Source: Ilumatobacteraceae bacterium
GTDB taxonomy: Bacteria; Actinomycetota; Acidimicrobiia; Acidimicrobiales; Ilumatobacteraceae
DNA: 64,000 bases
Assembly: GCA_041581055.1 (NCBI GenBank)
Contig: JBFGCT010000001.1
Coordinates: 6,652 to 70,651, forward strand
Reading direction: 5' to 3'
The notes under the pieces were generated by a model, which ran no database searches, was not told the origin of the DNA, and saw nothing but the letters and a program-made list of their open reading frames with translations. The stretch's first letter is position 1. The number at the start of each line of letters is the position of its first letter. Positions 2,640-64,000 of this stretch are shown piece after piece. Made by a program: the position numbers and the translations under genes.

Positions 2640-2932
2640 TCTCTATGGCCTCGCTAGGCGCGTGCTCGACGCCCGCCTGCCGCTTCCACCCAGGTGTCCC
2701 AGACTCACGACGTCGGTCTGATCCTCGGTCGGCAAGGAAGGCCCGATCGGGCGCTCGGGCAGGTCATCCGCGTCACAAAACGACAGTACCACTGCGTCAC
2801 TCCTGGGCCCAGATCGGCCGGAGGGGCGAGCGCCGATGGCGGCGACCGAAGGCTCGTGCTGGCGATGTTCGGCCGCGCGCGCAACGGCTGTGCGACGCGG
2901 CATCCGACGGACACCTGCCCGTTCCTCGCGCC

Positions 2933-2960
2933 TTGACCTCTGAAGCTCGAGACGTAGTAT
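2933..2960 (+). promoter_or_regulatory. Sigma-70-like promoter candidate for the Vps62-like gene
   Basis: TTGACC (2933-2938), 16-nt spacer, TAGTAT (2955-2960). A GGGAGG Shine-Dalgarno lies at 2969-2974, 5 nt before the ATG at 2980. Confidence 0.4.
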
Positions 2961-2979
2961 CGCTCTCCGGGAGGTTCAA

Positions 2980-4074
2980 ATGCGCCATTCCAGGGGGGTC
3001 GCGGAAACCGCCAAGGCATGGGTCCGCGCCGTGTTGGCTTATTTCACGAACCGGACGCATCGCCCGGACCCGGGGGATACGCGCAACCCGCCGCTGGCCA
3101 TGGTGAATCCCGACGATCAGGCGCTGCTCCAGCGCTTCGCACCGGATGTCTGGCTGCATTCGATGGAGGACTACTTCCCGTCCTCGATCGACTTCTATCT
3201 CGAACATTGCGAACTCGTGGGCGGGCCTTCCCGGATCGCCCAGCCCTCGTTCGCACAGCTGGCGGACTCGGCGTTCGGCGAGCGAAGGGCCTGGTACCTC
3301 GATGTCACCGACACGACCGAGTGCCTGCCGGGGACGAAACGCGATTCCGACGGCTCCGGGCCAGGGTGTTATGCCTACATTCAGCGGGCCGCCGCGGCCG
3401 CGTACCTGTACTACTGGTTCTTCTATCCGTACAACGGCAGCATCGTCGACAGGCGGGAGAACGAGGGCGCGTGGGAGGCTCTTCGGGACGTCGAGATACT
3501 TGCCAAGAAGTCTCCGTTCGGCGATCGCTTCCACGGGGACACGTCCGGCCACGTCGACCTGCACCAGGGCGACTGGGAGCGCGTCATCGTCGCTATTCCG
3601 ACCGGGCAGGAGACGCCGGACAAGATGTATTTCGCGCAACACTCCAAGGGCGCGGTTCTGCCGTGGGCGAGTGTGGTCAAGCACTCGGAAGATCATCCCG
3701 TTGTCTACTCCGCTCGCCATTCGCACGCGTCGTATCCAACGAGCGGCGAGCAGGCGGACCCGAGCCTTCCGCCGCCGTTCGACAAACTCCCGGCGGACGT
3801 CACGGTCCACGACCTCACAAACGAAGGCTTCCGGTGGAAGACCTGGCTGCAGCTCTCGATGCTCCCCTACGACGAGGCGGGCCCCACGGCGGCCGGATTC
3901 GGTGGCTGGCAGACCGACGATCAGCAGTGGCTGAAGTTCAGCGGCCGTTGGGGCAAACGGTGGCCCGACCACCACGCGTTCTGCGAGAGTAGCGGACCGG
4001 CCGGCCCGGCGTACCACGACGAGTGGGCTCAGGGCCATCCGGACACCGCCGGATACGGCGAAACGGCCGGGTGA
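2980..4074 (+). CDS. Vps62/DUF946 domain protein
   Basis: Family-typical motifs: MEDYFPSSIDFYL, YLYYWFFYPYNGS, HQGDWERVIV, MYFAQHSKG, VVYSARHSHASY. Confidence 0.75.
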   Translation: MRHSRGVAETAKAWVRAVLAYFTNRTHRPDPGDTRNPPLAMVNPDDQALLQRFAPDVWLHSMEDYFPSSIDFYLEHCELVGGPSRIAQPSFAQLADSAFGERRAWYLDVTDTTECLPGTKRDSDGSGPGCYAYIQRAAAAAYLYYWFFYPYNGSIVDRRENEGAWEALRDVEILAKKSPFGDRFHGDTSGHVDLHQGDWERVIVAIPTGQETPDKMYFAQHSKGAVLPWASVVKHSEDHPVVYSARHSHASYPTSGEQADPSLPPPFDKLPADVTVHDLTNEGFRWKTWLQLSMLPYDEAGPTAAGFGGWQTDDQQWLKFSGRWGKRWPDHHAFCESSGPAGPAYHDEWAQGHPDTAGYGETAG

Positions 4075-4167
4075 CACCCACCGCCGGGTATCCGCCGGAG
4101 GCGAGGTCGTCATAGCCGGGCGACGACGTGTGTTGACGCGGGCCGAGAACCGGTTGAGGATGGCCCG

Positions 4168-6756: not shown

Positions 6757-6873
6757 ACTTCCGCTGACCGCCAGCGCGCGAGTCCGTGAGCCGCCGTTTT
6801 TCGGGCCGCCGGGCGCCCGCCCGCCGCGTCGTCGGGTGGTGTGAACCGGCGGCGCCTTCTATGGTTGGCGACC

Positions 6874-8922
6874 GTGTCGACCTCGCGCATCAGAAACGTC
6901 GTACTCGTCGGGCACAACGGCAACGGCAAGACCAGTCTCGCCGAAGTGCTCCTCTACCGCGCCGGCGTCGTCGACCGCCCCGGGACGATCGACCGCGGCA
7001 ACATGGTCATGGACCACGACGCCGAGGAGCAGGAGCGCCAGCAGTCGCTCTCGCTCTCGGTCGCGTCGTTCGACTGGAAGGGCCACCGGATCAACCTGAT
7101 CGACACGCCGGGCTACGCCGACTTCCTCGGTGACGCGCTGATGGGGCTCGCCGTCGCCGACCTGGCCGTGTTCGTGATCGACGCCGTCGCCGGAGTCCAG
7201 TCGCAGGACACCGTCCTCTGGCGCCATGCCACCGCCCTCGGGATGCCTCGGCTGATCTTCATCAACAAGCTCGACCGAGAGCGATCGTCGTTCGACAGCA
7301 CGCTCGCCCAGGTGCGCGCGGCGTTCGGCTCGCACGCCGACCCGGTCGAGCTCCCGATCGGCGAGGAGTCGAGCTTCCACGGGATCACCGACCTCCTGGC
7401 CGACCAGGCGTTCCTGTACGACTCCGGCCGCGCCGAACCGGCGCCGATCCCCGACGCGTTGGTCGACGCCGAGCGCATCGAGCACGAGCACCTCGTCGAG
7501 GACGTGATCGAGATGGACGACGAACTGCTCGAGCGGTACCTCGAGGGGAACGAGCCGACGCCCGAACAACTCGAGCAACTGCTCCACAACGCGCTCGACG
7601 AGGCCAAGGTCTTCCCGGTGCTCTGCGGTTCGGCGACCACCCCGATCGGGGCCGACTACCTCGCCGACTTCATCTGCAGGGTCGGGCCGGCCCCCGGCGA
7701 CCGCGGGCCGACGGTCGTCGACGCCGGCGACCGCACGGCCGAGGTCCTGCCCGACCCCGACGGGCCGCCGCTGGCGTTCGTCTTCAAGACGACGATCGAC
7801 GAGTTCCTCGGTCAGATCTCGATCTTCAAGGTGGTGTCCGGCACGATCCGCCCCGACCAGGTGCTGGTCAGCTCGGGTTCGCGGAGCAAGGAGCGGCTGC
7901 ACCAGCCGCTGTCGCTGTCGGGGTCGTCCCACACGGCGATCGGCGAGGTGCGCGCCGGCGACATCGCCGCGGTGACCAAGCTGGCCGACACGCGGACGGG
8001 CGACACCCTCGCCCCCGACGGGACGCCGGTGGTGGTCCCGCCGCCGCAGCTCCCCCGCCCGGTGTACGGCGTGGCCATCGCCGCCTCCGCCAAGTCCGAC
8101 GAGGACCGGCTGGCCACGGCGCTGCGCCGCATCCTCACCGAGGACCCCACGCTCGCCGTGTACCACGACAGCTCGACGCACCAGACCGTGCTGAGCGGCA
8201 GCGGCGAGACCCACGTCCGCGTCGCCCTCGCCCGGGTCGCCCGCGCCGGCGTCGCCGTCGAAACCGAAGAGGTCCGCGTCGCCTACCGCGAGACGCTCGC
8301 CGGCACGGTCGAGGCGGAGGGCAAGTACAAGAAGCAATCGGGTGGGCACGGCCAATTCGGCGTGGCGACCGTCCGCTTCGAGCCGCTCCGCCGGGGGGCC
8401 GGGTTCGAGTTCGGGAGCGAGGTCACCGGCGGGGCGATCCCGAAGAACCTCATCCCCGCCGTCGGCGCCGGGGTCGAAGAGGCGATGGCGCGCGGCGGGC
8501 GCTACGGCTTTCCGATGGTCGACGTGCGGGCGGTCTGCCTCCACGGCAAGTACCACTCGGTCGACTCGTCGGAGATGAGCTTCAAGATGGCGGGGTCGTT
8601 GGCGCTGCGCGCGGCGATCGACCGCGTCGGGGTCGAGGTCCTCGAACCGGTCAGCGAGATGCGCGTGCACGTTCCGGATCGCCACCACGGCGACGTGCTC
8701 GGCGATCTCAACTCGCGGCGGGCCCAGGTGGTCGGAACCGGGTCGGACGGCGACCTCACCACGATCCACGCGTTGGTCCCGTCGTCGGAGATCACGCGCT
8801 ACGCGATCGACCTCCGCTCGCTCAGCGGCGGCACCGGTTGGTTCGAGGTCAACCACCACGGCTACCAGCCGCTCCCCCAGAACCTCGTCGACCGGCTCGC
8901 CAAGGCCGACGACGAGCAGTAG
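6874..8922 (+). CDS. Elongation factor G paralog (EF-G2-like translational GTPase)
   Basis: G1 motif NVVLVGHNGNGKTSLAE, DTPGYADF, NKLDRE, and EF-G domain IV/V-like C-terminus. The start is uncertain: GTG 6874 was chosen, and the ORF opens at 6841. Confidence 0.85.
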   Translation: MSTSRIRNVVLVGHNGNGKTSLAEVLLYRAGVVDRPGTIDRGNMVMDHDAEEQERQQSLSLSVASFDWKGHRINLIDTPGYADFLGDALMGLAVADLAVFVIDAVAGVQSQDTVLWRHATALGMPRLIFINKLDRERSSFDSTLAQVRAAFGSHADPVELPIGEESSFHGITDLLADQAFLYDSGRAEPAPIPDALVDAERIEHEHLVEDVIEMDDELLERYLEGNEPTPEQLEQLLHNALDEAKVFPVLCGSATTPIGADYLADFICRVGPAPGDRGPTVVDAGDRTAEVLPDPDGPPLAFVFKTTIDEFLGQISIFKVVSGTIRPDQVLVSSGSRSKERLHQPLSLSGSSHTAIGEVRAGDIAAVTKLADTRTGDTLAPDGTPVVVPPPQLPRPVYGVAIAASAKSDEDRLATALRRILTEDPTLAVYHDSSTHQTVLSGSGETHVRVALARVARAGVAVETEEVRVAYRETLAGTVEAEGKYKKQSGGHGQFGVATVRFEPLRRGAGFEFGSEVTGGAIPKNLIPAVGAGVEEAMARGGRYGFPMVDVRAVCLHGKYHSVDSSEMSFKMAGSLALRAAIDRVGVEVLEPVSEMRVHVPDRHHGDVLGDLNSRRAQVVGTGSDGDLTTIHALVPSSEITRYAIDLRSLSGGTGWFEVNHHGYQPLPQNLVDRLAKADDEQ

Positions 8923-8978
8923 CGGCCGCGGTGGGGCGGCGGCGGGTGCGAGCCCGCCGGCGCGTCTACGGTGGGGGC

Positions 8979-9299
8979 ATGTGCGTGAACTGCATGAGCA
9001 ACGCCGAGGCCGCCGTGGCGAGCTGGGCCGTCGTCGGCTACTTCGTCAAGAGCCCGGTGCACAAGGCGCTGGCGGCCGTCGACCTCGCCCCCGACCCCGA
9101 CCCGGTGGCCCACGACGTGCGGACGGTCGCCTTCCTGCGGGCGCTCGACCTCGACCCGGTCGAGGCGCTCGGCGCCGACGCCGTCGCTCAGGCCGAGTCG
9201 TGGACGCCCGACACCTCTTGGGTGCCGTTCCGCGACCGCTTCCGCCGCCTCGTCTCCGCCCGGCCCATCGGCGCCCAGAGCCTGATCGCCGCCCAGTAG
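8979..9299 (+). CDS. Small hypothetical protein (N-terminal CxxC)
   Basis: The ATG at 8979 gives MCVNCMSNAEAAV... The third-codon position is very GC-rich throughout. The 3' end overlaps the convergent gene by 112 nt. Confidence 0.45.
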   Translation: MCVNCMSNAEAAVASWAVVGYFVKSPVHKALAAVDLAPDPDPVAHDVRTVAFLRALDLDPVEALGADAVAQAESWTPDTSWVPFRDRFRRLVSARPIGAQSLIAAQ

Positions 9300-51457: not shown

Positions 51458-51491
51458 TCCTTGGCGCTCGCCGCGCGGTTAGCGTGAGGGC

Positions 51492-51974
51492 GTGAGCATC
51501 GTGCCGGGCGTCGTCGTCGCGCTGGTTGCGTTCGCGGTGATGGAGCCGGTGACCGCGGCGATCCACCGCTGGGTGATGCACGGCGTCGGCGAGCGCCTCC
51601 ACCGCAGCCACCATCGGCGGCCGGGCAGCACGTCGTGGGAGGCGAACGACTGGTACCCGGTGCTGTTCGCGTCGATCGTGATGGTGGCGATGTGGGCCGG
51701 ATTCAACCGCGACGGTCTGGGGGCGCTCGTCCCGGTGACCATCGGCGTCACGGCGTACGGCGCGGCGTACGCGCTGGTCCACGACGGGTACATCCACCGC
51801 CGGGCGCCGTGGTTCCCGGCACGTCGCGTCGGCATGCTCGACCGACTCGTCGACGCCCACCGGATCCACCACCTGTACGGGCAGGCCCCGTACGGCATGC
51901 TGCTGCCGGTCGTCCCGGGCGAGCTGCGAGAGCGGGCCGCCGCCGCCCGCCGCGACCCGCTGGTGCGCGCCTGA
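51492..51974 (+). CDS. Beta-carotene-hydroxylase-like (CrtZ / fatty-acid hydroxylase superfamily) membrane protein
   Basis: Histidine boxes HRWVMHG, HRSHH, HDGYIH and HRIHH. Confidence 0.75.
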   Translation: MSIVPGVVVALVAFAVMEPVTAAIHRWVMHGVGERLHRSHHRRPGSTSWEANDWYPVLFASIVMVAMWAGFNRDGLGALVPVTIGVTAYGAAYALVHDGYIHRRAPWFPARRVGMLDRLVDAHRIHHLYGQAPYGMLLPVVPGELRERAAAARRDPLVRA

Positions 51975-51986
51975 CGGCGCGGTCGG

Positions 51987-52829
51987 TCAGAAGACGAACA
52001 GCCCGGCCGTACCCGGCCCCGTGTGGGCCCCGACCGACGGACCGATGCGGTACTGCACGATGTCGCCGACCGCTGGATGCCCGGCGAGGACGTCGGTGAG
52101 TTGGACCCCGACCGGGCGGCTCGTCTCGTCCGAGGTCCCGATCGCGATCCGCAGCCCGTGGGGATTGCTCGGCGTCCACTCGAGCGCGTAGTGCGTCATC
52201 GAGGCGATCGCCTGGTTGAGCGTCTGCACCGTGTCGAGCACCTCGAGCTTCCCACCCGACATCGCCAGCACCGGCACCCCCGCTTCGGCCGCGGCGGCGA
52301 CACCGACGCCGTCCGCCCGACCCGACCGCTCGGTGAGCGCCGGCACGCCGACGATGAAGACTGTGCCGAGGTCGGCGGCCCGGCGCCGGGCCACGCTCGA
52401 CGCCTCGGTGACCGAAGCGCCGGCGTCGAGCGCCTCGGCGGCCGCCCAGACGCAGCACGAGACACCGAACGACGCCGTCCCGCTGTCGACCAGGTGGACC
52501 GGGCAGGAGACCTGCTCGGCGGCCAGCCGCGCCGAGTTCAGCGTGCCGCTCAACGCGGCCGAGAGATGCACGGACAGGATCTCGGTCGCGCCGGCCGCGA
52601 TCAGCCGGCCGTACGCGGCGGCGAAGTCGCCGGGCGACGGTTGGCTCGTCTCGATCACCGGCTCGTGCCCGCCGTCCCACGCCGCGTAGAACTCGTCGAC
52701 GGTCAGGTCGACACCCTCGTGGTACTCGCGGCCGTCGATCGTGACCGGCAGCGCGACGACCTCGATCTCGTACCTCTCGGCCAGCGACGGAGGCATCTGG
52801 CTGTTCGAGTCGGTGACGAGTCCGATCAT
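51987..52829 (-). CDS. DegV-family fatty-acid-binding protein
   Basis: MIGLVTDSNSQMP..., TSQPSPGDF, HLSAALSGT. Start at ATG 52829 within the listed 495-aa ORF. Confidence 0.85.
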   Translation of the reverse strand: MIGLVTDSNSQMPPSLAERYEIEVVALPVTIDGREYHEGVDLTVDEFYAAWDGGHEPVIETSQPSPGDFAAAYGRLIAAGATEILSVHLSAALSGTLNSARLAAEQVSCPVHLVDSGTASFGVSCCVWAAAEALDAGASVTEASSVARRRAADLGTVFIVGVPALTERSGRADGVGVAAAAEAGVPVLAMSGGKLEVLDTVQTLNQAIASMTHYALEWTPSNPHGLRIAIGTSDETSRPVGVQLTDVLAGHPAVGDIVQYRIGPSVGAHTGPGTAGLFVF

Positions 52830-52888
52830 GGTGCTCCCGATGCTTCCACACCGCCGACACCGTTCCGCCGCGTGCCGCCCGCCGACGG

Positions 52889-53500
52889 TCAACCGGCGTC
52901 CGCGAACCGCCGCATGATCATCGCGCTGGTCACCAAGTTGGCCAGCGGGAGCGCCAGCGACGGCTTCGGGCCCCAGAGGTTCCGCCAACCCTTGGCCCAC
53001 CACACGAGCCCCCCGAGCACCCAGCACGCGCTCGACACGGCCGTCGCCTCGAAGGCGCGCCGTTTGGCGGCCGGATTGGCCGCGGTCACCGCGGCGACCG
53101 CGACGTCGATCGGGAAGTACGCCGGGAACGTCGCCAGGCACTGGCCGACGCTCGCCGCGACGCCCTTGCCGCCGCGAAACCCGTTGGCCACCGGATAGCA
53201 GTGCCCGGCGACGGCGGCGGTCCCGCCGAGGTGCGCGCCGGTCGGGCCGGCGACGACGGCGCCGACCGCGCAGGCCGCGGCACCCTTGGCGATGTCGCCG
53301 GCCATCACCGTCGCGCCGGCGCGCGCGCCGAGCAGCTTGAGCGCGTTGGCGCCCCCGGGGTTGCCGCTGCCGGAGCGCCGCAGGTCGGTCGTGCCATCGC
53401 CGATCCGCCGGGCGACGAGGTCGGCGGTCGGGAACATCCCGAGGACGTAGCCGATCGACACCGCCCACGCGCATCGGCGCACGACGGGTGGCACTCGCAT
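52889..53500 (-). CDS. plsY: Glycerol-3-phosphate acyltransferase PlsY
   Basis: GYVLGMFPTADLVARR...GSGNPGGANALK. Start at Met40 of the listed ORF. Confidence 0.85.
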   Translation of the reverse strand: MRVPPVVRRCAWAVSIGYVLGMFPTADLVARRIGDGTTDLRRSGSGNPGGANALKLLGARAGATVMAGDIAKGAAACAVGAVVAGPTGAHLGGTAAVAGHCYPVANGFRGGKGVAASVGQCLATFPAYFPIDVAVAAVTAANPAAKRRAFEATAVSSACWVLGGLVWWAKGWRNLWGPKPSLALPLANLVTSAMIMRRFADAG

Positions 53501-53619
53501 CCGCGGATGGTAATCGAGCCGCGACCGGCCGCCCGGCGGCCCGGAACCAGCGGTGGAAGGCGGCCGGGCCCCTGCTAGATTCGACTCGCTCTCAACGAGA
53601 CGAGGTCCTCGCCTCACAG

Positions 53620-53692
53620 GCCCCCATCGTCTAGTGGCCTAGGACACCACCCTTTCAAGGTGGCGGCACGGGTTCGAATCCCGTTGGGGGTG
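53620..53692 (+). tRNA. tRNA-Glu (anticodon TTC)
   Basis: Hand-folded cloverleaf: acceptor GCCCCCA/TGGGGGT, anticodon arm CCACC CTTTCAA GGTGG, T-arm ACGGG TTCGAAT CCCGT. Confidence 0.9.
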
Positions 53693-53703
53693 CAAATCAC
53701 AAT

Positions 53704-53778
53704 GGTCCCGTGGTGAAGTCAGGAGTTCACGCCGGCCTGTCAAGCCGGAGGTCGCGGGTTCAAATCCCGTCGGGACCG
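53704..53778 (+). tRNA. tRNA-Asp (anticodon GTC)
   Basis: Acceptor GGTCCCG/CGGGACC, anticodon arm CCGGC CTGTCAA GCCGG, T-loop TTCAAAT. Confidence 0.9.
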
Positions 53779-53850
53779 CACAGGGGCCACCCGTCATCCA
53801 CATGACGGGTGGCTCCTGCGAATTCGGAGCGCGGCGCCGCTCCGAACCAC

Positions 53851-53923
53851 GGTCGAGTAGCTCAGTTGGCAGAGCGTCCGCCTGAAAAGCGGAAGGTCCC
53901 CGGATCGACGCCGGGCTCGACCA
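53851..53923 (+). tRNA. tRNA-Phe (anticodon GAA), atypical T-loop
   Basis: Acceptor GGTCGAG/CTCGACC, anticodon arm TCCGC CTGAAAA GCGGA, T-arm CCCGG ATCGACG CCGGG (A at position 54). Confidence 0.85.
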
Positions 53924-54000
53924 CGCCGCACGAGGGCGCCGGGGCAGCGCCTCGGGCCACGCTCGGTCGACCCCGCACGCGCGCGTCGACTCGGCGCGCG

Positions 54001-55392
54001 TCAGGTCTCGACGAACATGACGTTGGTCAGCCAACCGAGTACCGGAGCGTTGCGTGATCCGTTCTCGGTGACGAACACGTCCTGGCAGCCGGGCATTCGC
54101 GCCATGGCCTCACGCGCCTCCTCGAGCGTCGAGTCGGGAGCGACCGTGCCGAACGTGGATTCGAACATCTTGGCCATCTCCTCGTCATTCAAGAGGTCGC
54201 GAAGGCTGAGCTTCGCGGTGTCCTGACCGGCGAATGATTTCGCCGCCACGAACTCCATGATCATCGAGCGATGGGCGATCATATGGGCGTAACCCTCGGC
54301 GTCGATGATCGGGATGCGCGACCGGCCGTTACCCAGGAGCTCTCGAAGGATCACGGTCTCCGGGTCGATCGCTCCCAGCTGAAGAGCGTAGATGTCCTCC
54401 ATGCGCAACATGCGGTCGCGGGCGAGCACCTGGGGGCTCTCGACCGGCATGAACGAGATGTCGAAATGTCCGGGCTCGCCATCGGCCCCGGCCCGGTACG
54501 CGCTCACGAACGGGAGGTGCAATCCCCCGCCTTCGGACTCGTACGGCGCCCACGGCACGGAGCGGAGCTCCTCACGGAGCGCTGAGACCACTTGACGGAC
54601 GATGGACTGAATCCAGGGTGGAAGATCACCGAGACTGCGCGGCTGGCCCTCGAGGCCCATCAGGCGGGCGAGGCCGGTCGTGGGGCCGATCGCGATGCTG
54701 AACAACCCCTCGACTCGCTGGCTGGACTCGATCCTGGCCTCCGACGCCAGAGCCGCCGCGGCGACGTCCTCGCGACTCTGTGGAGTGGCGCTCATGATCG
54801 ACTCGACGGCTGAGCCGGGCAACTCGACGCGGACGAACGGACTGGTGACGCGGGTGGTCTTGTCCATCGAGAGCCGTTCCAACCAGGGACGCAGGTGTTC
54901 GTGCAACGACTGCGCCAACTCCCTGAGGCGTTCCTCCCGGCGGTCGTACCCCGTGAGCGGGCCGTCGTGCCCCTGGACGAATGTCGCGTCGGTGGCCAAC
55001 TGAACGACGAACGCCTCCAATGAATCGACCGACGTCGCGTCGACGCGCAGCGAGGTGCCGTACACCACTGGTGCCTGGCTACCGCATTGAAGGACGATGA
55101 CATTCGTCGGCGTCGTGTCACGAGGATCCGTTGCGACCCCGCATTCCCACATGCAATAGGACCAGTCCTGGTCCTCGCCCGTGTACACCAGGAAAAGAAC
55201 GTCCGTGCTCGCCAGCGCGTTCTTCAGCTCATCGTTCAGCTCCTTACCCGCACGCGGACCCTGAAAGTTCGGCGAGGACGAAAGGTGTATGTCGGCCTGG
55301 GCGTTGGTCAGATCACGGATGAACTCGGCCAACACCAACGCGATGCCGCGATCGGCATGCTTGTGGCTCACGAAGAAGTAGGGATTCGTCAT
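54001..55392 (-). CDS. TIR-domain protein with C-terminal CBS pair
   Basis: N-terminal FFVSHKHADRGIALVLAEFI...STDVLFLVYTGEDQDWSYCMWECG (TIR_2-like, Glu83 retained). C-terminal Bateman-like IPIIDAEGYAHMIAHRSMIMEF and CQDVFVTENGSRNAPVLGWLTNVMF. The ATG at 55392 has GGAG 8 nt upstream. GC is lower than in the flanks. Confidence 0.7.
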   Translation of the reverse strand: MTNPYFFVSHKHADRGIALVLAEFIRDLTNAQADIHLSSSPNFQGPRAGKELNDELKNALASTDVLFLVYTGEDQDWSYCMWECGVATDPRDTTPTNVIVLQCGSQAPVVYGTSLRVDATSVDSLEAFVVQLATDATFVQGHDGPLTGYDRREERLRELAQSLHEHLRPWLERLSMDKTTRVTSPFVRVELPGSAVESIMSATPQSREDVAAAALASEARIESSQRVEGLFSIAIGPTTGLARLMGLEGQPRSLGDLPPWIQSIVRQVVSALREELRSVPWAPYESEGGGLHLPFVSAYRAGADGEPGHFDISFMPVESPQVLARDRMLRMEDIYALQLGAIDPETVILRELLGNGRSRIPIIDAEGYAHMIAHRSMIMEFVAAKSFAGQDTAKLSLRDLLNDEEMAKMFESTFGTVAPDSTLEEAREAMARMPGCQDVFVTENGSRNAPVLGWLTNVMFVET

Positions 55393-55489
55393 CACGTAGC
55401 TCCGATCTACAACCACCACGACCCTACTGCGGGTGGACGGTTGGGGCTTCGCCCGTTTCGACCGCGCCGAGGACCTTCACGCCGCGCCG

Positions 55490-56284
55490 TCACACGCCGA
55501 TGTCGCGACGATTGAAGCCCCAGCTCCCGACGGCGACGAGGATCAGCACCACGACGATCATGAGGGCACAGTCGCCACCGTCGAGTCCGCGTCTGAGCGG
55601 ATCGTTACCCGTCAGCCAGTCGAACGGCGACAGGTTCTCGACCCACTCGAGCCCGTCCCGCTGCGGGATGATCCCATTGGCCACGTATCCGAGGACCGCG
55701 GCGCCGGCGCCCACGCCGAGGGCCAGCGACCGGCGTCCCGACGCGGCGCCGACAGCGAACGCCAGGGCGCCGAAGACGGCGGCGAACAGGGCGAGGTGAG
55801 CGTGCATCGCGGCGAACCCGGCGATCGGGATGTCGTCCAGTCGGGCCGGCACGATCAGCGCGAGCATCGCCAGCCAGAACACGCCGACGATGATCGCGAC
55901 GCTGACGAGGAACGCGGCGAATCGCCGAACCGCCAGCCCCACCCGGCTGACCGGCTGCGCCGCGATGAGGTCGAGGGTCCCGGCCTCCTCGTCCCCGGCG
56001 ATCGCGCGGGCGCCGGCGCCGACCGAGTAGACCACCAGGAGGACCGCCACGATCAGCCCGTACACGCTGGCGGCGAGGTACCCCGCAGCGGTGGAGATGT
56101 CGCCGTAGTCGAGCGCTTCGAGCAGGCCCTCGGGATAGCTGTCGAGTGCCTCCTGGATCCCCGGCGAGTCGATCGTCGGCCAGAACGCGGCGTAGCCGCC
56201 GCCGACGATCACGATCGCCAGCGTCCAGACGGCGATCGACCGCCGGGCGTCCCACAGCCACTTGGTGAAGACGTCACGCAGCAC
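55490..56284 (-). CDS. ABC-2-type transporter permease
   Basis: 264-aa, 6-TM protein overlapping the upstream ATPase gene by 11 nt. Confidence 0.75.
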   Translation of the reverse strand: MLRDVFTKWLWDARRSIAVWTLAIVIVGGGYAAFWPTIDSPGIQEALDSYPEGLLEALDYGDISTAAGYLAASVYGLIVAVLLVVYSVGAGARAIAGDEEAGTLDLIAAQPVSRVGLAVRRFAAFLVSVAIIVGVFWLAMLALIVPARLDDIPIAGFAAMHAHLALFAAVFGALAFAVGAASGRRSLALGVGAGAAVLGYVANGIIPQRDGLEWVENLSPFDWLTGNDPLRRGLDGGDCALMIVVVLILVAVGSWGFNRRDIGV

Positions 56285-57185
56285 CGCCGGCCTCGTCCCC
56301 GTCGCTGTAGTAGTGGAAGAAGAGGTCCTCCAGGTCGGCTTCCTCCACGGACAGCGTGACGACGACGTGACGCGCCGCTTCCTTCACAAGTGCGTCAGCG
56401 CTTCCGTCGAGCCGACACCGCAGCACGGCGCCGTCGACCTCGACGGCGCCGACCCCGGGAAGCCCGGCGAACGACGACGCCGAGACGGGGCCGTCGAACC
56501 GGATCTCGACCGCGCGCATCGAGCGTTCGCGAAGGTCCTCGACGCTCTCGACCGCGGCCAGACGGCCTCGGCGGACGATTCCGACTCGATCGGCGGTCTG
56601 CTGCACCTCGCTCATCACGTGGGACGACATGAACACGGTCCGGCCATCGCGGGCCGCCTCCCGGGCGAGGGCGGCGAACTCCTGCTGCAGGAACGGATCG
56701 AGTCCGCTGGTCGGCTCGTCGAGGACCAGCAGCTCCGGGTCGTGCATGAAGGCCTGGATCACGCCGACCTTCTGGCGGTTCCCCTTGGACAGGGTCTTGA
56801 TCCGCCGGCCGGTGTCGAGCTGCAGCCGGTGGGCAAGCTCCGCGACCCGGCCGGGCGCGACTCCGCCGCGCAGGTTGCCGAGGTACGTCAGCAGTTCGGC
56901 GGCGGTCTGGCGACCGTCGACGGCGAAGTCGCCGGGCAGGTAACCGATCCGGCGGCGCAGCCCGACGCCGTCGCGGCGCGGGTCGACACCGAGCACGACG
57001 GCGCGCCCGCTCGTGGGCCGGATCAGATCGAGGAGCAGCCTGATCGTCGTCGTCTTCCCCGAACCGTTGGGGCCGAGGAACCCATACACCTCGCCGCGGT
57101 CGACCTCGAGGTCGAGGCCCGCCAGTCCCTTGCTCTGGCCGTAGTCCTTGACCAGCCGCTCGGTGCGAATCGCGGCCTGAGCCAT
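56274..57185 (-). CDS. ABC transporter ATP-binding protein
   Basis: Walker A GPNGSGKTTT, signature LSKGNRQKV, Walker B LLVLDEPTSGLD. Confidence 0.9.
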   Translation of the reverse strand: MAQAAIRTERLVKDYGQSKGLAGLDLEVDRGEVYGFLGPNGSGKTTTIRLLLDLIRPTSGRAVVLGVDPRRDGVGLRRRIGYLPGDFAVDGRQTAAELLTYLGNLRGGVAPGRVAELAHRLQLDTGRRIKTLSKGNRQKVGVIQAFMHDPELLVLDEPTSGLDPFLQQEFAALAREAARDGRTVFMSSHVMSEVQQTADRVGIVRRGRLAAVESVEDLRERSMRAVEIRFDGPVSASSFAGLPGVGAVEVDGAVLRCRLDGSADALVKEAARHVVVTLSVEEADLEDLFFHYYSDGDEAGGAA

Positions 57186-57200
57186 CGCGGGTCCCCGGCG

Positions 57201-60200
57201 TCAGTCGCAGGCGGTCGGGGTGGCGCCGACCTCGGCGCTCAACGTGTCGGAGGTGAAGAACCCCGCGAAGAGCGTGCAGGCACGCTCCGGATCCCACGGC
57301 GCGTCCCACAGCCGGACCGCGCCGTCCGAGCCGGCGGTCGCCAGCACGGTCCCGTCGGGGCTGAAGTCCAGGCCGAGCACGAAGCACGGCTGGTCGTCGG
57401 AACAGCCGGGCAGGCCGTCGATCGGCTCTCCGGCGATCGGACCGCTGGACCCGAGCTGCCCGGCCGGTCCGAGCGGCCAGATGCGGATCGTCCCGTCGTT
57501 GCCGCCCGACGCGAGCAGCCCGCCATCGGGCGCGAAGGCGACCGGACCGACCTCGTTCGTGTGCCCGGTCAGGACGAACCGCTCGCCGGTCGTGCGGTCG
57601 ACGAGGCCGATCGTCTGATCCTTGCTGGCCGAGGCCACGAGGTCCGCGGTCACGGCGATCCCCCTGACATTGCTGGAGTGCGGCGAGGCGAGTCCGCCCT
57701 CCGACTCCACCAGCGCGTCGCCGGTGATCTCCAGCTCGCGGACGTTCCCGCCGATGTCACCGACCAGGAGGCGCCCGTCGCTCTCGAACTCCACCGCGGT
57801 GACCTCCTGGAGGTCCTCGCCCAGATCGATCTTGTGCTCGTCGACGAGCTCGCGGCGTCCGATGTCGAACAGGCGAACCCAACCGTCGTCGCCGACCGAC
57901 GCCGCCCAGCGACCCGTCGGGTCGATGGCGACCCGGCGGACCTCGTTGTCGGTCGCGCCGTCCACGTCGCCCGGCTCCCGCAACTCGTAGCCGAGGCTGG
58001 TCAACTCGCTCGTGCCGTCGCTCCGGTCCCACAGCCAGACGCGGCCGTGGCCGGCGGCGACGATCACGTCCTCGGTCGGGCTGAACGCGAGGGAGTACAA
58101 CCGGTTCCGGTTCCCGTCCTCGACGAGCAGGTCCCGCGGGTCGGGAACGAGATCGGCGCCGACCCGCTCGTGCGTGCTCGGGTCCCACAGGCGGATCGCC
58201 CCGTCGAAACCGGCCGACGCCAGCAGGGTCCCGTCGCGGTTGTACACGACCGAGGTCAGAAAGCACGTGTCGTTGGGCCCGCGCGGGCCGCAGTCGTTGT
58301 GGACCAGCTCCGGCGCCAGGTCGACCGCCGTGGTCGCCCAGGTGCGCACCGTCCCGTCGCCGCTGCTCGAATAGAGCCGCGAGCCGTCCGCGGAGAAGGC
58401 CACCCCCGACACCCATTCGCTGTGGTCGGTGAGCGGGACGCCGATCGGCGCCCATCGCCCGGCATCGGCGTCTTCCGCCGACCAGACGATGATCGTGCGG
58501 TCGGTGCTCGACGTCGCCAGCAGGTCGCCGGCCGGATCGAACGCCAGCCCGCGGACCGCGCGGTTGTGCCCGACGAGCGGCACCGGCGACGGATCGCGGC
58601 CCTCCAGGTCGGACCAGTGCCACATCGTGCCGTCGGCGTACCCGACGACGAGCGCGCCGGACGTCGGATGGAAGGCGGCGACGTACGCCGCGGTCAACGC
58701 CGCCTCGTCGTCCACGCCGGCCGCCGGCGCCAGGAGTCGCCGGACCGCCGACCCCGAGGCGACGTCCCAGAGCACGACCTGGCCACCGGCGTCGTCGTCG
58801 GTCCGGTCGCCGTCGGGGTTCTGACGATCACCCTCGGCGGACACGAGCACCCGACCGTCGTCGCTGAACGCGACGTCGAACACGTCCCCCGGCACGCCCA
58901 ACGACCCCCGGTCGAGGACGGTCGGGGTCGGCGGGCTGGCCGCGAGATCCCACAGCCAGACCCGTCCCTCGTCGTCGCCCGACACGACGCGCTCCGACGT
59001 CGGGTCGAAGGCGACCGCGTGGATCAGCCGGCCGGCGGGCTCGCCGGGCGGAGCGTGGTCGAGGACGTGGACGGCGTCGAACGCCGATCCGGCGCGCTCC
59101 CACAAGGTGACCGTTCCGTCCTGTGACGACGTGGCGAGCCAGCGGCCGTCCGGGCTGAGGCTCGTGTCGTACACGTTCGCCGGCGACTCCTCCCGCCCCA
59201 CGAAGACCGCGCCGGCCGCCGCTTGGTCGCCGAGGTGGACCGAGGTGTACTCGCCGACGACCACGTCGCCGTCGGGGCCGAGCGACAACCCGACGACCCC
59301 GCGATCGAACTCGAAGGGATCGCCGTACGGCGACCAACGCTCGTCGAAGGTGGCCCGCGCCGACACGAGGGCGCGGATCGACTCGGGCGTCGACGGCTCG
59401 ATCAGCGCCGTGCTCTCCGCGGCGACCGCCAGCGCCAGCGCCGGGTTCGACTCCTGGAGGAAGCGCGACGACGTCGACAGCTTCGACGCGGTCGCCTCGC
59501 GGAGCGCGTCCTCGGCCCTGCCCTGGGCGCGGACGGCGGCGACGAGGCCGATCGCGGCGACGGCGAACAAGACGATGGCGGCGACCGCCAGCACCAGGTT
59601 CCGGCGCGAGCTCCGGCGCAGCGCGGCCGCCCGCTGCTCCCTCTCGTGGCAGGCCTCCAGGAACTCGCGGTCGATGTCGTTGAGCTCGTCGGGGTTGGCG
59701 GCCGCCCAGTCGTCGGCCTCGACGAGCACCTCCCCGCCGATCAGCAACCCCGACGACCGCTCGCGCCGGCCCCACTCGTCGGCCTTGAGCTGGAGATTGG
59801 ACAGATGCTGGGCCTCCCAGGCGGCGTTGGAGGCGCGGATCGGCTCGACGAGCCGGTCGTGGGCCAGCTCGTACCAGATCGCGCCGCGGCGCGACTCGGC
59901 CCTAGTGAGATGGGCGTCCTCCAGCCTGCGCAACACGTCGTGGCCGGCGTCGCCCGGTCCGGACAGCGTCTGGGTCCGGAAGCCGTGTTCGGTGATCAAC
60001 TCGTTGTCGATCCACTGCCGGATCGCCCGCTCGCTGACACCGGTCGCTTCGGCGACCCCGGCGACCAACTCCTCGTAGAACGTGGCGAGCGCGTCGTCGA
60101 CGCTGCCCAGCGCTTCGACGTCGGCGAGCTCGATCGACGACGCTCCGGCCGACAGCCCGTCCCACATCCGCCGGCAGACGACCTGGAGCTGGACCGGCTC

Positions 60201-61025
60201 GACGTAGCGCCCGAGCTCCTCGACGACCGAGTCGCCGCGCTGCACGCGAACCTGGCGGAGATCGTCGATGAGCCGTTGCGCCGCGACGTCGGTGAAGTCG
60301 GCCCCGGCGTCGGCGACGGCCCGCTGGGCGGCGACCGTGGCCGCGCCGGCGTCGAGGAGGTCGAGTCGGTAGCGGGTCCGCAGCCGGGTCGGCACGTACC
60401 TGACGAAGTCGTCGAGCTGCGTGACGAAGTCCTCGCGCATCGAGAACAACGCGGACCAGCGGCGATCGCGCAGGGCCTTGCCGACCTCGGCGACGAACTC
60501 GACCTTCTGGTCGTGGTCGGTCGGGTCGAGGGTGAGCAACTCCTCGAACTGGTCGAACACCAGGCACGGATCGAGGTCGTCGCCGGTCGGGAACAGCGCG
60601 AGGTACTCGGCGAACCCCATCCTCGCCAGCGCCGCCGGATCGACGCGCTCCTCGGCCGGCCGCGCCCCGTCGAGCGAGAACAGCGCGCTCAGCAGGTACC
60701 GGTTGCCGACCCCGCCGCCCTCGGCGGGCGCCCCACCGCCGTCGACCATGTCGAGATGACCCACGCGGATCGTCGGGAGCACCGCGAAGTCCCGGCGCTC
60801 GAGCTCGGGACGCAGGCCGGCGTCGATGAGCGAGGTCTTGCCGGCGCCCGACGGGGAGTACATCAAGACGATGCGGTCGGCGATCAACAGGTCGCGGAGG
60901 TCGCCGATCTCGACGTCGCGCCCGTAGATCTTCTCGCCGCGCCGGATCGAGCGCGGGCCGACGAACGGGTTGCGGCGCTCGCTGCCGGGCTCGACGCGTT
61001 CGGCCGGATCGGCGACCGACGTCAT
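57201..61025 (-). CDS. STAND-type NTPase (nSTAND1-like) - single TM helix - WD40 beta-propeller protein
   Basis: [25 protein letters not shown]...[21 protein letters not shown] (Walker A) and [10 protein letters not shown] (Walker B). [25 protein letters not shown] (aa 476-498) follows RRSSRR. At least 13 blade endings of the type DGTVRLWD. Start at ATG 61025; the upstream 518 aa of the listed ORF is a shadow frame over the next gene. Confidence 0.8.
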
Positions 61026-62782
61026 CGGACGGCCGCCCTCAGCTCGGCGAGCCCGGCGGCGAACTCGTCGATCGAGCCCCAGAAGATGTCGATCGACGGG
61101 TTCCGGTACTTGCCGAAGTACCGCTCGAGGTACTTCTGCTCGCGCGACCGCCCCTCCGCCCCGGGCCGGAAGTCGGCCTGCGCGCCGACGTGGGAGTACT
61201 TGTTGAGCTTGTGCCCCCCCTCGGCGCTGATCAGCGCCCTGAGGAGCACCCCGACGTCGACGCCGTCGAGGCCGAAGCCGAGCAACAAGAGCGCCGAGTC
61301 GGCCAGCACGCGGCGCACCGGCTTGGGGATCAGCGACGGATCCTGCGTGACGCTGATCAGGAAGTCGAGGTAGTCGTCCGAGCTGAGCACCAGCGAGTCC
61401 GGCGTGTCGACGGTGCCGAAGACGTGGTACACGAGCGGGCGCTCGACGGACGGAACGTACCCGGGCTCGGTGTCGAAGACCGACGGCGGCCAGTCCTCCT
61501 CGTACACGTCGGGCCGCCACCGACAGAGCTCGACCGCGGGCTGCTTGCCCGCCTCGACAAGGGCGTCGGCCATCAGCGCCCACGGATGGGCGATGACGTA
61601 GATCCGGCACGGAAGCCCGGCCAGCACCTGGTGCGGGTCGTGGTCGACGGTCGCCAGACGGTCCCGCCACACCGCGCTCAGCACCTGGTTGAACTCTTCG
61701 GCCGAACCGTCCTCCACCGACTCGCCGAAGTTCTCGACGATCTGCTCGCGTAGACCGTCGGTCAGGGCCGACCGCAGCGTGTCGACGTTGTTCATCACCT
61801 CGACGAACTGGGCGGCGAGCGGCAGGTCGTTGCGCCGGCGCAGCTTGGTCGGCAGGTTGAAGCTCTGCGCCCAGCGCTTCGCCAGGTCGTCCATCGGGCC
61901 GACCAGCGAGTCGGTGATGCCCCGGCCGATGATCGGCGTGAAGTGGTCGTTGTCGACGTGGGTCATCAGCGAGCGGAGCAGGTCGACGGTGTCGGGCTCC
62001 AACTCGGCGAGCGAGCGCCGCTGGCGGGCGGCCCGGCGCTCCCGGGCGATCGGGAGCGTGGCGATCAACCGATCGACGTCGCGCTTGACGGCGACGGCGA
62101 GCTCGCGCCGTCCGAGCAGCTGCTCGGCGAGCGCCAGCAAGGTCGGGTGCTGGTCGGCGGAGGCGACGTGCTGGCGCAGGAGGGCGACGAGCTCCTCCTG
62201 CTCGTCGAGCGTCAGCGTGTCGGTCGAGGCCAGCCGGTCCTTGAGCGGCGCGAGGTCGACGATCGGCGGCGGCGGCGGTTCGGGCGGCGGACCCGACGGC
62301 CGCACCCGCTCGGCCTTCCCCTTCTGCAGCACCGCGACGGCCAGCGCCGTCACGCTCTCCGGCGTGCGCTGTCGGAGGTCGACGTACTGCGTGGTGCCGA
62401 TCGGATCCGGCGCGAGCTGGACGTCGGTGTCCCGCACCATGACCGGGATGATCGGCGCGCCCAACGCGACCGCGTAGGCCAGCTCGGAACGGCACGCCCC
62501 CGACTGCAGCGAGGCCGGGCTCAGCAGGAACAGGAACACGTCCGCCGACCGGATCCGATCGAGGATGACGTCCCACCACTGCTGCCCGCCGCGCAGCTCG
62601 CGATCGAACCAGACCTGCGAGCTGACCTGTCGCAGATCGTCGTTCAGCGTCGCGGCGACCGCGGCGTCGGGACGCGCGTAGCTGATGAACAGCTCGATCC
62701 CGTCGCCGCCTCCCGACGGCGGATCGACGGCGCGCGGCGCACCTGTCGCCCCCGCTGCCGGGGGAGGAAGCTGATCACTCAT
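61022..62782 (-). CDS. TIR domain - linker - SIR2_2-like domain fusion protein
   Basis: [21 protein letters not shown]...[25 protein letters not shown] (TIR_2-like, Glu100). The C-terminal half has IIGRGITDS..., [26 protein letters not shown] and [14 protein letters not shown] (SIR2_2-like). Its stop overlaps the start of the NTPase gene (ATGA). Confidence 0.7.
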
Positions 62783-62968
62783 CTCGTCACCCGGTTCTCT
62801 CGCGCGCGTTCCGTGAGACGACCGTACCGTGTCCGGGTCGGCGATCCTGTACGTGACACGGCCCGCCGTCCCGGCCTGCCCGTGACCGGCGGCCGTGATT
62901 GGGACTTGACGGCGGGCCCGACGGACCACAGAGTGCTCACGAGGGCACACGACGGTCGAGAGGGCTTG

Positions 62969-63889
62969 GTGACGGAGACGATCGGTTTCATCGGGTTGGG
63001 CACCATGGGCGGGCCGATGTGCGAGCGTCTGGCCGGCGCCGGGTTCGGGATCGTCGCGTTCGACCTCGAACCCGAGCGGCTCGCGGCGGCGGGCGGCGCC
63101 GGGGCGCGGCCGGCGGGCTCGGTTGCGGACTGCGCGGCCGGCGCCGACGTGTTGTTGACGTCGCTCCCCCGGCCCGACGACGTCCAGGCGGTCATGGCCG
63201 ACGCCGGCGCGCTGGCCGCGCTCCGGCCGGGATCGCTGTGGATCGACCTGACCACGAACCGCAAGGAGTTGGTCGCCACGCTGGCCGCGGCCGCGCCCAC
63301 CGGCGTCGACGTCGTCGACTCGCCCGTCACCGGCGCCGTCGACGGCGCCCGCACGGGTCGGCTCACGCTCTTCGTCGGCGGCGAGCCCGCGCCGGTGGCA
63401 CGAGCGACGCCGATCCTCGATCATCTCGGCACGGTGATCGCCTGCGGGCCGCTCGGCGCCGGCAACGTCGTCAAGCTCGTCACGAACCAGTTGTGGTTCG
63501 TCGCCGCCGCGGCGATCGGCGAGGGCTTCGCGGTCGGCATGTCACACGGCGTCGACCTGGCGGTGTTGTACCGGGCGATCTGCGATTCGGTCGGCGACTC
63601 GTTCGTCGCCCGCCACGACGCGCCGTCGATCTTCGCCGGCCACTACGACCCGTCGTTCAGCCTCGCGCTCTGCCTGAAAGACCTCGGATTGCTCGCCGAG
63701 CTCCAGCACGACGTCGGCGCGCGCTTGCTCCTGACCGACGCCGCCCGCGCCGCGTTCGCCGAGGCCGGCGAGCGGTACGGGACCGGCGCCGGCGAGATGC
63801 ACGTGGCCCGACGGCTGGAGGACGACACCGGGCTGTCGTTCCGGCTGGACGGCGACTGGACGGCCCCTTGGGAGGTGGCGGCGGAGTGA
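62969..63889 (+). CDS. 3-hydroxyisobutyrate / 6-phosphogluconate dehydrogenase-family NAD(P) oxidoreductase
   Basis: IGFIGLGTMGGPMCERL Rossmann motif, VDSPVTG, and GAGNVVKLVTN. The GTG at 62969 is preceded by GAGAGGG. Confidence 0.85.
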   Translation: MTETIGFIGLGTMGGPMCERLAGAGFGIVAFDLEPERLAAAGGAGARPAGSVADCAAGADVLLTSLPRPDDVQAVMADAGALAALRPGSLWIDLTTNRKELVATLAAAAPTGVDVVDSPVTGAVDGARTGRLTLFVGGEPAPVARATPILDHLGTVIACGPLGAGNVVKLVTNQLWFVAAAAIGEGFAVGMSHGVDLAVLYRAICDSVGDSFVARHDAPSIFAGHYDPSFSLALCLKDLGLLAELQHDVGARLLLTDAARAAFAEAGERYGTGAGEMHVARRLEDDTGLSFRLDGDWTAPWEVAAE

Positions 63890-64000
63890 CGACGACCGGC
63901 ATGGCCGGTGGGATCGGTCGGACGGTCGGCAGACGAGGGGAGGTCAGACGCAGAGCGCGGGTTGTCCGCCGAGCTCGTCGCTGAGCCGCTGCCGGCCGTC

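Follow-up and report, generated by a model that had tools for sequence, protein, structure and literature searches.

Enzymes with TIR domains that destroy nicotinamide adenine dinucleotide (NAD), the TIR NADases, have a central role in the immunity of bacteria, plants and animals; what sets them apart from one another is the way in which they are switched on. In bacteria, the known switches are either dedicated second messengers, as in CBASS, Pycsar and Thoeris, or the recognition of a phage protein, as in SpbK and the Avs-type proteins. The effectors of CBASS and Pycsar require a cognate nucleotide cyclase, the gene of which is adjacent, and the typical pattern among these effectors is that one sensor module is joined alternately to a TIR or to a membrane effector. 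CBS pairs normally read the cellular pools of adenylate, S-adenosylmethionine or c-di-AMP, and a CBS-pair switch would be a different kind of input, one that couples metabolite status directly to effectors of immunity or suicide. Among the described systems, SpbK of Bacillus subtilis ICEBs1 is a single-gene abortive-infection NADase that is activated by self-association (PMC12847820), and fusions of HEPN and CBS domains have been noted by comparative genomics, with an inferred role of the CBS part in sensing nucleotides and regulating the effector (Anantharaman et al. 2013, PMC3710099). Here, we analyze a TIR–CBS gene at positions 54001-55392 of a 64,000-nt stretch of DNA from an Ilumatobacteraceae bacterium (GCA_041581055.1, contig JBFGCT010000001.1; the entire stretch is called the window throughout). 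We regard its product as a TIR effector that carries a new middle domain, specific to TIR proteins, and an input module of a new class. No TIR–CBS protein is described in the searchable literature, where the remark on HEPN–CBS fusions is the nearest precedent, and no characterized one is included in PADLOC, in agreement with an earlier note on this DNA, which was made from the sequence alone and knew of none. The gene and its parts are the following.

54001-55392, minus strand: TIR–middle–CBS gene, an open reading frame (ORF) of 463 amino acids plus stop, with the stop codon at 54001-54003
54988-55392, minus strand: TIR domain, residues 1-135 (TIR_2 match at residues 6-120; Foldseek; secondary structure from strand 5-9 to helix 122-134)
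55144-55146, minus strand: codon of Glu83, the putative catalytic glutamate in YCMWECG (invariant in 79 sequences; SpbK alignment)
54427-54987, minus strand: linker helix and family-specific middle domain, residues 136-322 (AlphaFold2; profile search)
54004-54426, minus strand: CBS pair (Bateman module) of a non-canonical subtype, residues 323-463 (Foldseek, MJ1225 profile, motif analysis)
55400-55403, minus strand: GGAG, similar to a Shine-Dalgarno motif and 7 nt upstream of the ATG; read from the sequence

An alternative GTG start nine codons upstream would extend the ORF to 55419, but the ATG is favored because the GGAG motif lies 7 nt before it and because the N-termini of the closest homologs (462-463 amino acids, 100% coverage) agree with it. 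A protein of another assembly, GCA_041628315.1 (P0001), is 100% identical to the window protein.

Searches of Pfam, NCBIfam, PADLOC and the PDB with this sequence alone gave sub-threshold or weak matches throughout: PADLOC returned weak matches to the TIR models of ThsB and SpbK (E = 2.5e-4 for ThsB), and SpbK was the sole sequence match in the PDB (E = 0.19). Family profiles and structure were therefore needed to establish the domain identities. In an alignment of 79 homologs, which was used both for the invariance counts given below and for structural modeling, all but one of the members match TIR_2 at E <= 0.01 (78/79, best 1e-11), and three relatives (P0087, P0090 and P0101) score above the 28-bit TIR_2 cut-off. 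The AlphaFold2 model of the full protein built on this alignment has a mean pLDDT of 92.1; it is a model of a single chain (pTM 0.63) and carries no information on oligomers. Residues 1-135 form a TIR fold in the model, with five strands alternating with helices, and in the PDB, Foldseek pairs this N-terminal part with the TIR filament of SpbK (9phb_A, E = 4.7e-4, TM-score 0.61) as well as with the SPARTA TIR 8isy_B. A library of viral structures gave weak matches only, to the TIR and nucleoside 2-deoxyribosyltransferase folds.

The residues M81-W82-E83-C84-G85 are present in the window protein, and the invariant positions of the TIR domain across the 79 homologs are F7, S9, H10, S38, S39, P46, W77, C80, E83, C84, G85 and C103. 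The comparison with SpbK requires an offset of +24 to the native numbering, the chain 9phb_G (290 residues) being 24 residues longer at the N-terminus; under this offset, S145/S146 correspond to S121/S122 and N215/E216/G218 to N191/E192/G194, which are the residues named in PMC12847820. With the offset applied, the phmmer alignment equates Y79 with Y188 of SpbK, E83 with E192 and G85 with G194. SpbK E192 is a modeled NAD-site residue that has been mutated to Ala, and Y188, E192 and G194 are all modeled NAD-site or helix-interface residues that have been mutated (PMC12847820). Given the invariance of E83 and its alignment to E192, the window TIR therefore bears the hallmark of an enzymatic TIR. 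Taken together, the profiles and the predicted structure show that the N-terminal domain has a TIR fold with a putative catalytic glutamate and a conserved pocket, and it is probably an NAD-destroying enzyme. The invariant C80, C84 and C103 surround Glu83 (codons within 55081-55155), and H10 and H12 are conserved as well; together, these cysteines and histidines may make up a site that binds metal or responds to redox state, an unusual feature for a TIR domain.

The identity of the C-terminal part was established in a similar manner. Among the 79 homologs, 46 match the CBS profile at E <= 0.01 (best 7e-9), and Foldseek aligns the C-terminal ~145 residues with dozens of CBS pairs in the PDB, at target-normalized TM-scores of 0.62-0.73, including MJ0922 (E = 6e-6), AcuB, CBSX1, the c-di-AMP receptors DarB and CbpB, and AMPK gamma. 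A profile restricted to the CBS pair finds MJ1225, an archaeal protein that binds AMP (E = 4.3e-7), and aligns with 9sr9 over both repeats.

The middle region (~180 amino acids) has no Pfam family and no sequence match in the PDB. In the AlphaFold2 model, it consists of a long helix (residues 154-178) followed by an alpha/beta domain, which keeps a pLDDT of 87.5 when modeled by itself and for which Foldseek found no significant structural neighbor (best E = 0.46). A weak, recurring likeness to PAS, LOV and GAF domains (TM-score 0.45-0.49, E >= 0.46) is a lead rather than an assignment. An exhaustive search with a middle-domain profile, covering 1.84 billion representative proteins, yielded only 276 clusters at E <= 0.001, and in intact proteins, the domain almost always begins at about residue 135-150, directly after the TIR domain. 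When the 139 new representatives from this search were sorted by architecture, 55 clusters consisted of TIR and middle domain only, 34 had the complete TIR-middle-CBS arrangement and about 7 had the TIR and middle domains with another C-terminus, the remainder being fragments and other truncated forms. From these counts, the TIR domain together with the middle domain is the core unit, which may or may not be followed by a C-terminal CBS pair. As modeled, the middle domain is a new, well-folded, TIR-specific domain without structural relatives. An apparent fusion of ClpX with the TIR and middle domains (P0095, 792 amino acids, on a 15.6-kb ENA contig) was judged to be a frameshift or mis-assembly, not a real architecture, because its TIR-middle part is interrupted by stretches unlike the family; the contig does show that a TIR–CBS gene adjoins clpX in that genome.

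The domain composition proposed in the earlier note, an N-terminal TIR with Glu83 retained in MWECG and a C-terminal CBS pair, is thus borne out, the former by the profiles, the AlphaFold2 model with Foldseek and the invariance in 79 homologs, and the latter by Foldseek and the match to the MJ1225 profile. Pfam recognizes the TIR and CBS domains at the level of the family, whereas the query itself stays below the cut-offs and the middle region belongs to no Pfam family.

The CBS pair is not confined to TIR proteins. Its profile alone retrieved 571 proteins, and the 119 newly returned top matches include 64 proteins of ~250 amino acids that have an N-terminal module of two transmembrane segments (2-TM; motif LPLLGTWVGTVLAFYFS) and no Pfam annotation. 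About 18 other top matches have strongly hydrophobic, membrane-type N-termini, some being 2-TM variants without the motif and several representing a distinct type with multiple transmembrane segments (multi-TM; P0110 is a further example); the rest of the newly returned matches are N-terminally truncated TIR-middle-CBS fragments. The CBS pairs fused to TIR and those fused to membrane modules share the signature R-x-P ... H ... GCQDVFVT ... GWLTN. No membrane-CBS protein matched any PADLOC model. The alternation between TIR and membrane modules, a pattern of Pycsar and CBASS effectors that is also cited within PMC12847820, provides the strongest indirect argument as to function: by analogy, it suggests that the CBS pair is the regulatory input and the N-terminal part is the output.

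The 2TM–CBS proteins make up a large unannotated family of ~250-residue proteins (examples are P0162, P0204, P0217 and P0224). One of them is encoded on plasmid pTha01 of the cultured organism Thauera aminoaromatica (WP_012592884.1, L081 6605-7381); it is 41% identical to the window CBS pair, and its gene lies directly after those of a Tn3-family transposase and a resolvase. Two other 2TM–CBS loci (L075 and L077) adjoin phage-type integrases, and one of these also has a gene for a CHAT protease. In a Desulfobacter metagenome-assembled genome (MAG; CP054837.1, locus L076), a gene for a 363-amino-acid protein (6780-7871) starts 18 nt after the 2TM–CBS gene; this protein shows weak similarity to a SIR2 model (E ~ 2e-4) and has no Pfam match.

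These sequence, model and comparative data lead us to a reading to which we give about an even chance, namely, that the protein is a stand-alone sensor–effector, a TIR NADase gated by a ligand or another trigger, whose activation would lead to growth arrest or abortive infection. In the resting state, the TIR NAD+ glycohydrolase would be held off by the CBS pair, perhaps together with the PAS-like middle domain. On sensing the trigger, for which a small phosphorylated or nucleotide-type ligand, or the loss of one, is a candidate, the CBS pair, possibly with the middle domain, would change the oligomeric state of the protein. The TIR domains could then assemble composite active sites, as they do in SpbK, TIR-STING and TIR-SAVED, and would deplete NAD+ or make ADP-ribose-type products, with growth arrest or abortive infection as the outcome. 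Cleavage of NAD+ through TIR self-association and composite sites has been described for SpbK, and also for TIR-STING, TIR-SAVED, SARM1 and AbTir (PMC12847820). The modular occurrence of the CBS pair suggests, again by analogy, a sensor that controls interchangeable effectors.

The family is scattered. A search of 5.8 billion proteins found 111 relatives, about 85 of them full-length (455-507 amino acids), with a patchy distribution over Acidimicrobiia, Thermoleophilia, Mycobacterium, Acidobacteriota, Longimicrobium, Bradyrhizobium and a cyanobacterium. No neighbor is conserved across ~25 full-length loci compared by tblastn, which is in line with the single-gene unit envisaged in the earlier note, and in 24 loci with TIR-middle-only genes no partner is conserved beyond 4/24. 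Adjacency to a tRNA is not a family trait (a tRNA lies within ~1 kb in 1/25 full-length loci), nor is the neighboring ABC transporter a functional partner, the ATPases near homologs being generic and found at about the chance rate and the permease not being conserved. In three independent loci (the window, L073 and L023), the TIR–CBS gene has a pair of SIR2 and nSTAND1–WD40 genes at a distance of no more than ~2.5 kb, the order and orientation of which vary; L073 also carries a transposase. By a rough estimate, three such coincidences in ~25 loci are well above chance, and co-location in islands of conflict systems fits them better than operonic partnership. Overall, the defense context of the TIR–CBS gene is at most suggestive.

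In the window, the gene lies at the edge of a variable segment. To delineate this segment, the corresponding loci of relatives were located with PlsY homologs as anchors; the closest relative on a long contig is L078 (PlsY 76% identical), and L082 (PlsY 74%) has the same tRNA cluster. The relevant features are the following.

51987-52829 and 52889-53482, minus strand: DegV and PlsY genes (Pfam), the conserved core flank, syntenic with L078, L079 and L082
53620-53693 and 53704-53779, plus strand: tRNA-Glu and tRNA-Asp (ARAGORN on the window, L078 and L082), forming a conserved cluster with tRNA-Phe
53851-53924, plus strand: tRNA-Phe (GAA) (ARAGORN), the 3' end of which is the left edge of the variable island
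53925-62969: variable cargo segment of 9,045 bp between tRNA-Phe and the conserved dehydrogenase (blastn/tblastx against L078)
55490-56284 and 56274-57185, minus strand: ABC-2 permease and ABC ATPase (Pfam), island cargo upstream of the TIR–CBS gene and on the same strand
57201-61025, minus strand: nSTAND1–WD40 gene, 1274 amino acids (Pfam), overlapping the TIR_2–SIR2_2 gene
61022-62782, minus strand: TIR_2–SIR2_2 gene, 586 amino acids (Pfam, PADLOC TIR matches), overlapping the nSTAND1–WD40 gene
62969-63889, plus strand: NAD_binding_2/NAD_binding_11 dehydrogenase (Pfam), the right flank, 80% identical at the nucleotide level to L078 1705-2634

The block of DegV, PlsY and the tRNA-Glu-Asp-Phe cluster is syntenic between the window and L078, as are the genes beyond. 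Homology between the two, by blastn and tblastx, is limited to 51474-53924 and 62970-63902, the first stretch stopping at the 3' end of tRNA-Phe, and in place of 53925-62969, L078 has 6.9 kb of unrelated genes, including those for a condensation-domain protein and an AAA_16/GerE regulator. In L082, homology again stops at 53924, and the cargo (1-9276, ERZ25039600 contig_18707) encodes an RNase_H_2/AAA_11/AAA_12 helicase, a TerB_N–TerB–TerB_C protein, a BrxC/BrxD-like ATPase and a DEAD helicase. Because the cargo differs from the 3' end of tRNA-Phe onward in all three genomes, the 3' flank of this tRNA is a variable hotspot, and the TIR–CBS gene, which is absent from the site in both L078 and L082, arrived as cargo in the variable island. 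The L082 cargo at this hotspot is a different defense-type cluster. The overlapping TIR_2–SIR2_2 and nSTAND1–WD40 genes of the window look like an NLR-type conflict system with native GC content in the same island. A classical integrative element was rejected, as neither an att repeat nor an integrase came to light: no integrase was found by Pfam among the called island genes, and the 3' 29-mer of tRNA-Phe is single-copy with <=3 mismatches allowed, without a credible direct repeat and with no att site.

With respect to base composition, the TIR–CBS gene, at 64.0% GC, is the lowest of 1253 segments of 1392 bp compared across the 64-kb window (mean 71.5%, standard deviation (SD) 2.4), and its GC content at third codon positions (GC3) is 82.8%, compared with 89-94.5% in the neighbors. 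Relative to ~40 window genes that were called crudely, its GC3 and codon-usage score lie ~1.5 SD below the mean, which marks its composition as outlying, though not unique. The other island genes have genome-like GC contents (70.6-72.7%), and the TIR–CBS gene alone deviates. This deviation is partly intrinsic to the TIR–CBS family, the members of which are GC-poorer than their flanks in 24/28 loci (mean difference across loci, -3.4 points; Wilcoxon p = 3.6e-5); the deficit is largest in high-GC hosts, and the window gene is 8.4 points below its flanks.

The account of the locus in the earlier note requires some adjustment in the light of these data. The coordinates of the gene and its hand-counted low GC are reproduced by the ORF call and by the windowed GC calculation, although of the two compositional measures that the note had named, GC proved to be the lowest in the window while codon usage, like GC3, is low without being unique. 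The gene is indeed downstream of tRNA-Phe by position; with respect to transcription, however, it is not, since the tRNA is on the plus strand and the gene on the minus strand, so that the gene converges on the tRNA across a 76-nt gap. Horizontal acquisition next to the tRNA holds on the strength of the synteny break and the absence of the gene from L078 and L082, whereas the low GC, which the note had adduced, is in part a family trait. The gene is missing at tRNA-Phe in both relatives and is thus very unlikely to be a core gene.

Two further observations concern the assemblies and the window at large. GCA_041628315.1 contains two versions of the PlsY–DegV–FA_hydroxylase region (L001 and L079; PlsY 77% and nucleotides ~75-83% identical), and this bin therefore probably mixes two related populations; L079 ends at the tRNA cluster. 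A second low-GC stretch of the window, 2944-6753 on the plus strand (65.6% and 67.8%), encodes a Vps62-like protein (376 amino acids) and a protein of 893 amino acids that contains an eCIS_core domain; it resembles a locus for a toxin or for an effector of a contractile injection system.

A number of observations weigh against a TIR NADase gated through its CBS pair and acting in defense, and some of these favor other explanations of the same data. The query on its own reaches only 22.7 bits with TIR_2 (PF13676, cut-off 28) and 16.7 bits with CBS (PF00571, cut-off 24). In the alignment with MJ1225, the canonical ribose/phosphate motif G-h-h-T/S-x-x-D/N is matched by neither CBS repeat: in CBS1 (M-I-A-H374-R-S-M377), an invariant His stands in place of T/S, and Met or Thr in place of Asp, whereas CBS2 (G453-W-L-T456-N457-V-M459) keeps the Thr and has Met where the Asp would be; the CBS2 Asp is present in 26/79 family members and in 4/65 2TM–CBS proteins. 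The case for nucleotide gating made in the earlier note is weakened by the invariant His374 in CBS1 and by the absence of the ribose-binding Asp from both repeats. Adenine-nucleotide gating is plausible by analogy alone, the details of the site lending it no support. Nevertheless, R359, P361, H374 and G453 are invariant and D438 is found in 78/79 members, so the pocket looks conserved yet unlike the classical adenosine sites, and a ligand would probably bind in a manner other than the canonical adenosine mode. CBS pairs may also serve purely as dimerization modules, and TIR-middle proteins without the CBS pair are commoner than those with it, so that the pair is dispensable for the core function. 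A defense effector in which the CBS pair is a constitutive dimerization scaffold, and in which the trigger, for example a phage protein, is read by the middle domain or the TIR, would accommodate the commoner architecture, the obligate coupling of the middle domain to the TIR and the missing Asp in both repeats, and has a precedent in SpbK, which recognizes the portal protein YonE via a separate domain (PMC12847820). We nonetheless consider such a scaffold unlikely, in view of the polar residues that this CBS subtype keeps over both the TIR and the membrane fusions (R359 and H374 invariant; D438, T456 and N457 well conserved), a feature that points to a binding pocket more than to a dimer interface between helices, and of the lack of a recognizable binding fold in the middle domain.

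The genomic context, too, cuts both ways. All full-length homologs come from MAGs, the family was not found in phage genomes or in IMG/VR, no full-length copy was found on plasmids, and several homolog loci are embedded in housekeeping or metabolism genes, with a weak defense-island signal. A batch scan of 117 neighbor ORFs with PADLOC gave single matches to IetA/IetS, LmuB, TRIP13, TIR-TM, AbiLi, LeoA and others, but in the controls, the ordinary ABC ATPase of the window (56274-57185) matched mad3 (1e-26), mad8 and AriA, and the window WD40 protein matched HEAT-ARM_XIII; raw PADLOC matches in neighborhood scans therefore overstate the defense content, many of the neighbor matches are false positives, and the scan was downgraded as a proof of defense islands. 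Housekeeping-only flanks at several loci and the lack of phage and plasmid copies would suit a physiological regulator, a CBS-controlled enzyme of NAD(P) consumption or ADP-ribose signaling that ties energy or nucleotide status to dormancy or stress, all the more as CBS pairs are classical sensors of energy and second messengers and the structural neighbors include AMPK gamma, DarB and CbpB. Such a role outside immunity also appears improbable, because close relatives lack the gene at this site, because it is patchy across phyla with a persistent GC deficit and recurs close to SIR2 and nSTAND1–WD40 pairs and mobile-element genes, and because conflict systems typically swap effectors in the way seen here between TIR and membrane modules. 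We attach a lower probability still to a ThsB-like TIR that would make a cyclic ADP-ribose-type messenger for a separate effector, such as the products of the neighboring TIR–SIR2 or nSTAND1–WD40 genes: the weak PADLOC and Pfam matches to ThsB TIR models, the SIR2-domain genes within ~2.5 kb in three loci and the weakly SIR2-like gene 18 nt downstream of the 2TM–CBS gene in L076 are set against E-values of only ~1e-4 for ThsB, the lack of a conserved partner in ~25 full-length or 24 TIR-middle-only loci, the varying order and orientation relative to the SIR2 and nSTAND genes, with ABC genes intervening in the window, and the absence of SLOG and Macro domains from the annotated neighborhoods examined. 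Finally, an ordinary core gene whose low GC stems from amino acid composition, without horizontal acquisition, is very hard to credit. The GC deficit is family-wide, GC3 and the codon score deviate from the window mean by only ~1.5 SD, and neither an integrase nor an att repeat was found, but the two relatives with the same DegV–PlsY–tRNA block (L078 and L082) carry other cargo from the 3' end of tRNA-Phe onward, which contradicts this explanation, and the nearest non-identical relative is only 61% identical and occurs in a different context without a tRNA.

A broader proposal, which we advance tentatively and consider doubtful, is that this CBS subtype is an unrecognized receptor module of bacterial conflict systems that senses a metabolite or nucleotide alarm without a dedicated cyclase and gates interchangeable suicide effectors; these would be the TIR NADase here and the 2-TM or multi-TM modules in hundreds of other single-gene, mobile loci. 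If so, such proteins would represent a new class of single-gene abortive-infection switches gated by metabolites. The 2TM–CBS gene beside the Tn3 transposase on the plasmid of the cultured Thauera offers an experimentally tractable entry point.

By their defining features, the TIR–CBS protein is not a member of the SpbK, Thoeris, CBASS or Pycsar systems, although it resembles each of them in part. SpbK (PDB 9PHB) has the closest solved TIR domain by sequence and by fold, and the two TIRs have in common the motifs FISH...D and YC..E.G, including the active-site Glu. In SpbK, however, an N-terminal phage-portal-binding domain precedes a C-terminal TIR, whereas the window protein starts with the TIR, followed by the middle domain and the CBS pair, and the similarity at the sequence level is marginal (the single-sequence E-value given above). 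The window TIR is like the Thoeris protein ThsB in having a TIR_2/ThsB_TIR-like domain with a catalytic Glu, the model matches being weak, but it comes with extra domains, the matches are far weaker than membership would give, and no ThsA-type partner (SIR2-SLOG or Macro-TM) is conserved across the loci.

On the sensor side, the stand-alone CBS receptors (MJ1225, DarB/CbpB, AMPK gamma, CBSX and MJ0100) have the same Bateman fold and the R-x-P strand motif. They differ from the window protein in the G-h-h-T/S-x-x-D motif, which is altered here (His374 in CBS1, Met459 in CBS2), and the signature GCQDVFVT...GWLTN of the window subtype is not seen in the aligned solved CBS structures. The HEPN–CBS proteins, like the window protein, fuse CBS to a conflict-type effector and are likewise without experimental characterization; their effector is a HEPN RNase, not a TIR. 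The TIR effectors of CBASS and Pycsar (TIR-STING, TIR-SAVED, and PycTIR as opposed to PycTM) have STING, SAVED or cyclic nucleotide monophosphate-binding domains as sensors where the window protein has a CBS pair, and no CD-NTase or Pycsar cyclase is among the families listed by PADLOC and Pfam for the 117 neighbor ORFs. The logic, nevertheless, is shared: in these effectors as in the window protein, a TIR is fused to a small-molecule sensor or, in the latter case, a candidate for one, and the CBASS/Pycsar-like swapping of TIR and transmembrane modules is seen here for a CBS subtype.

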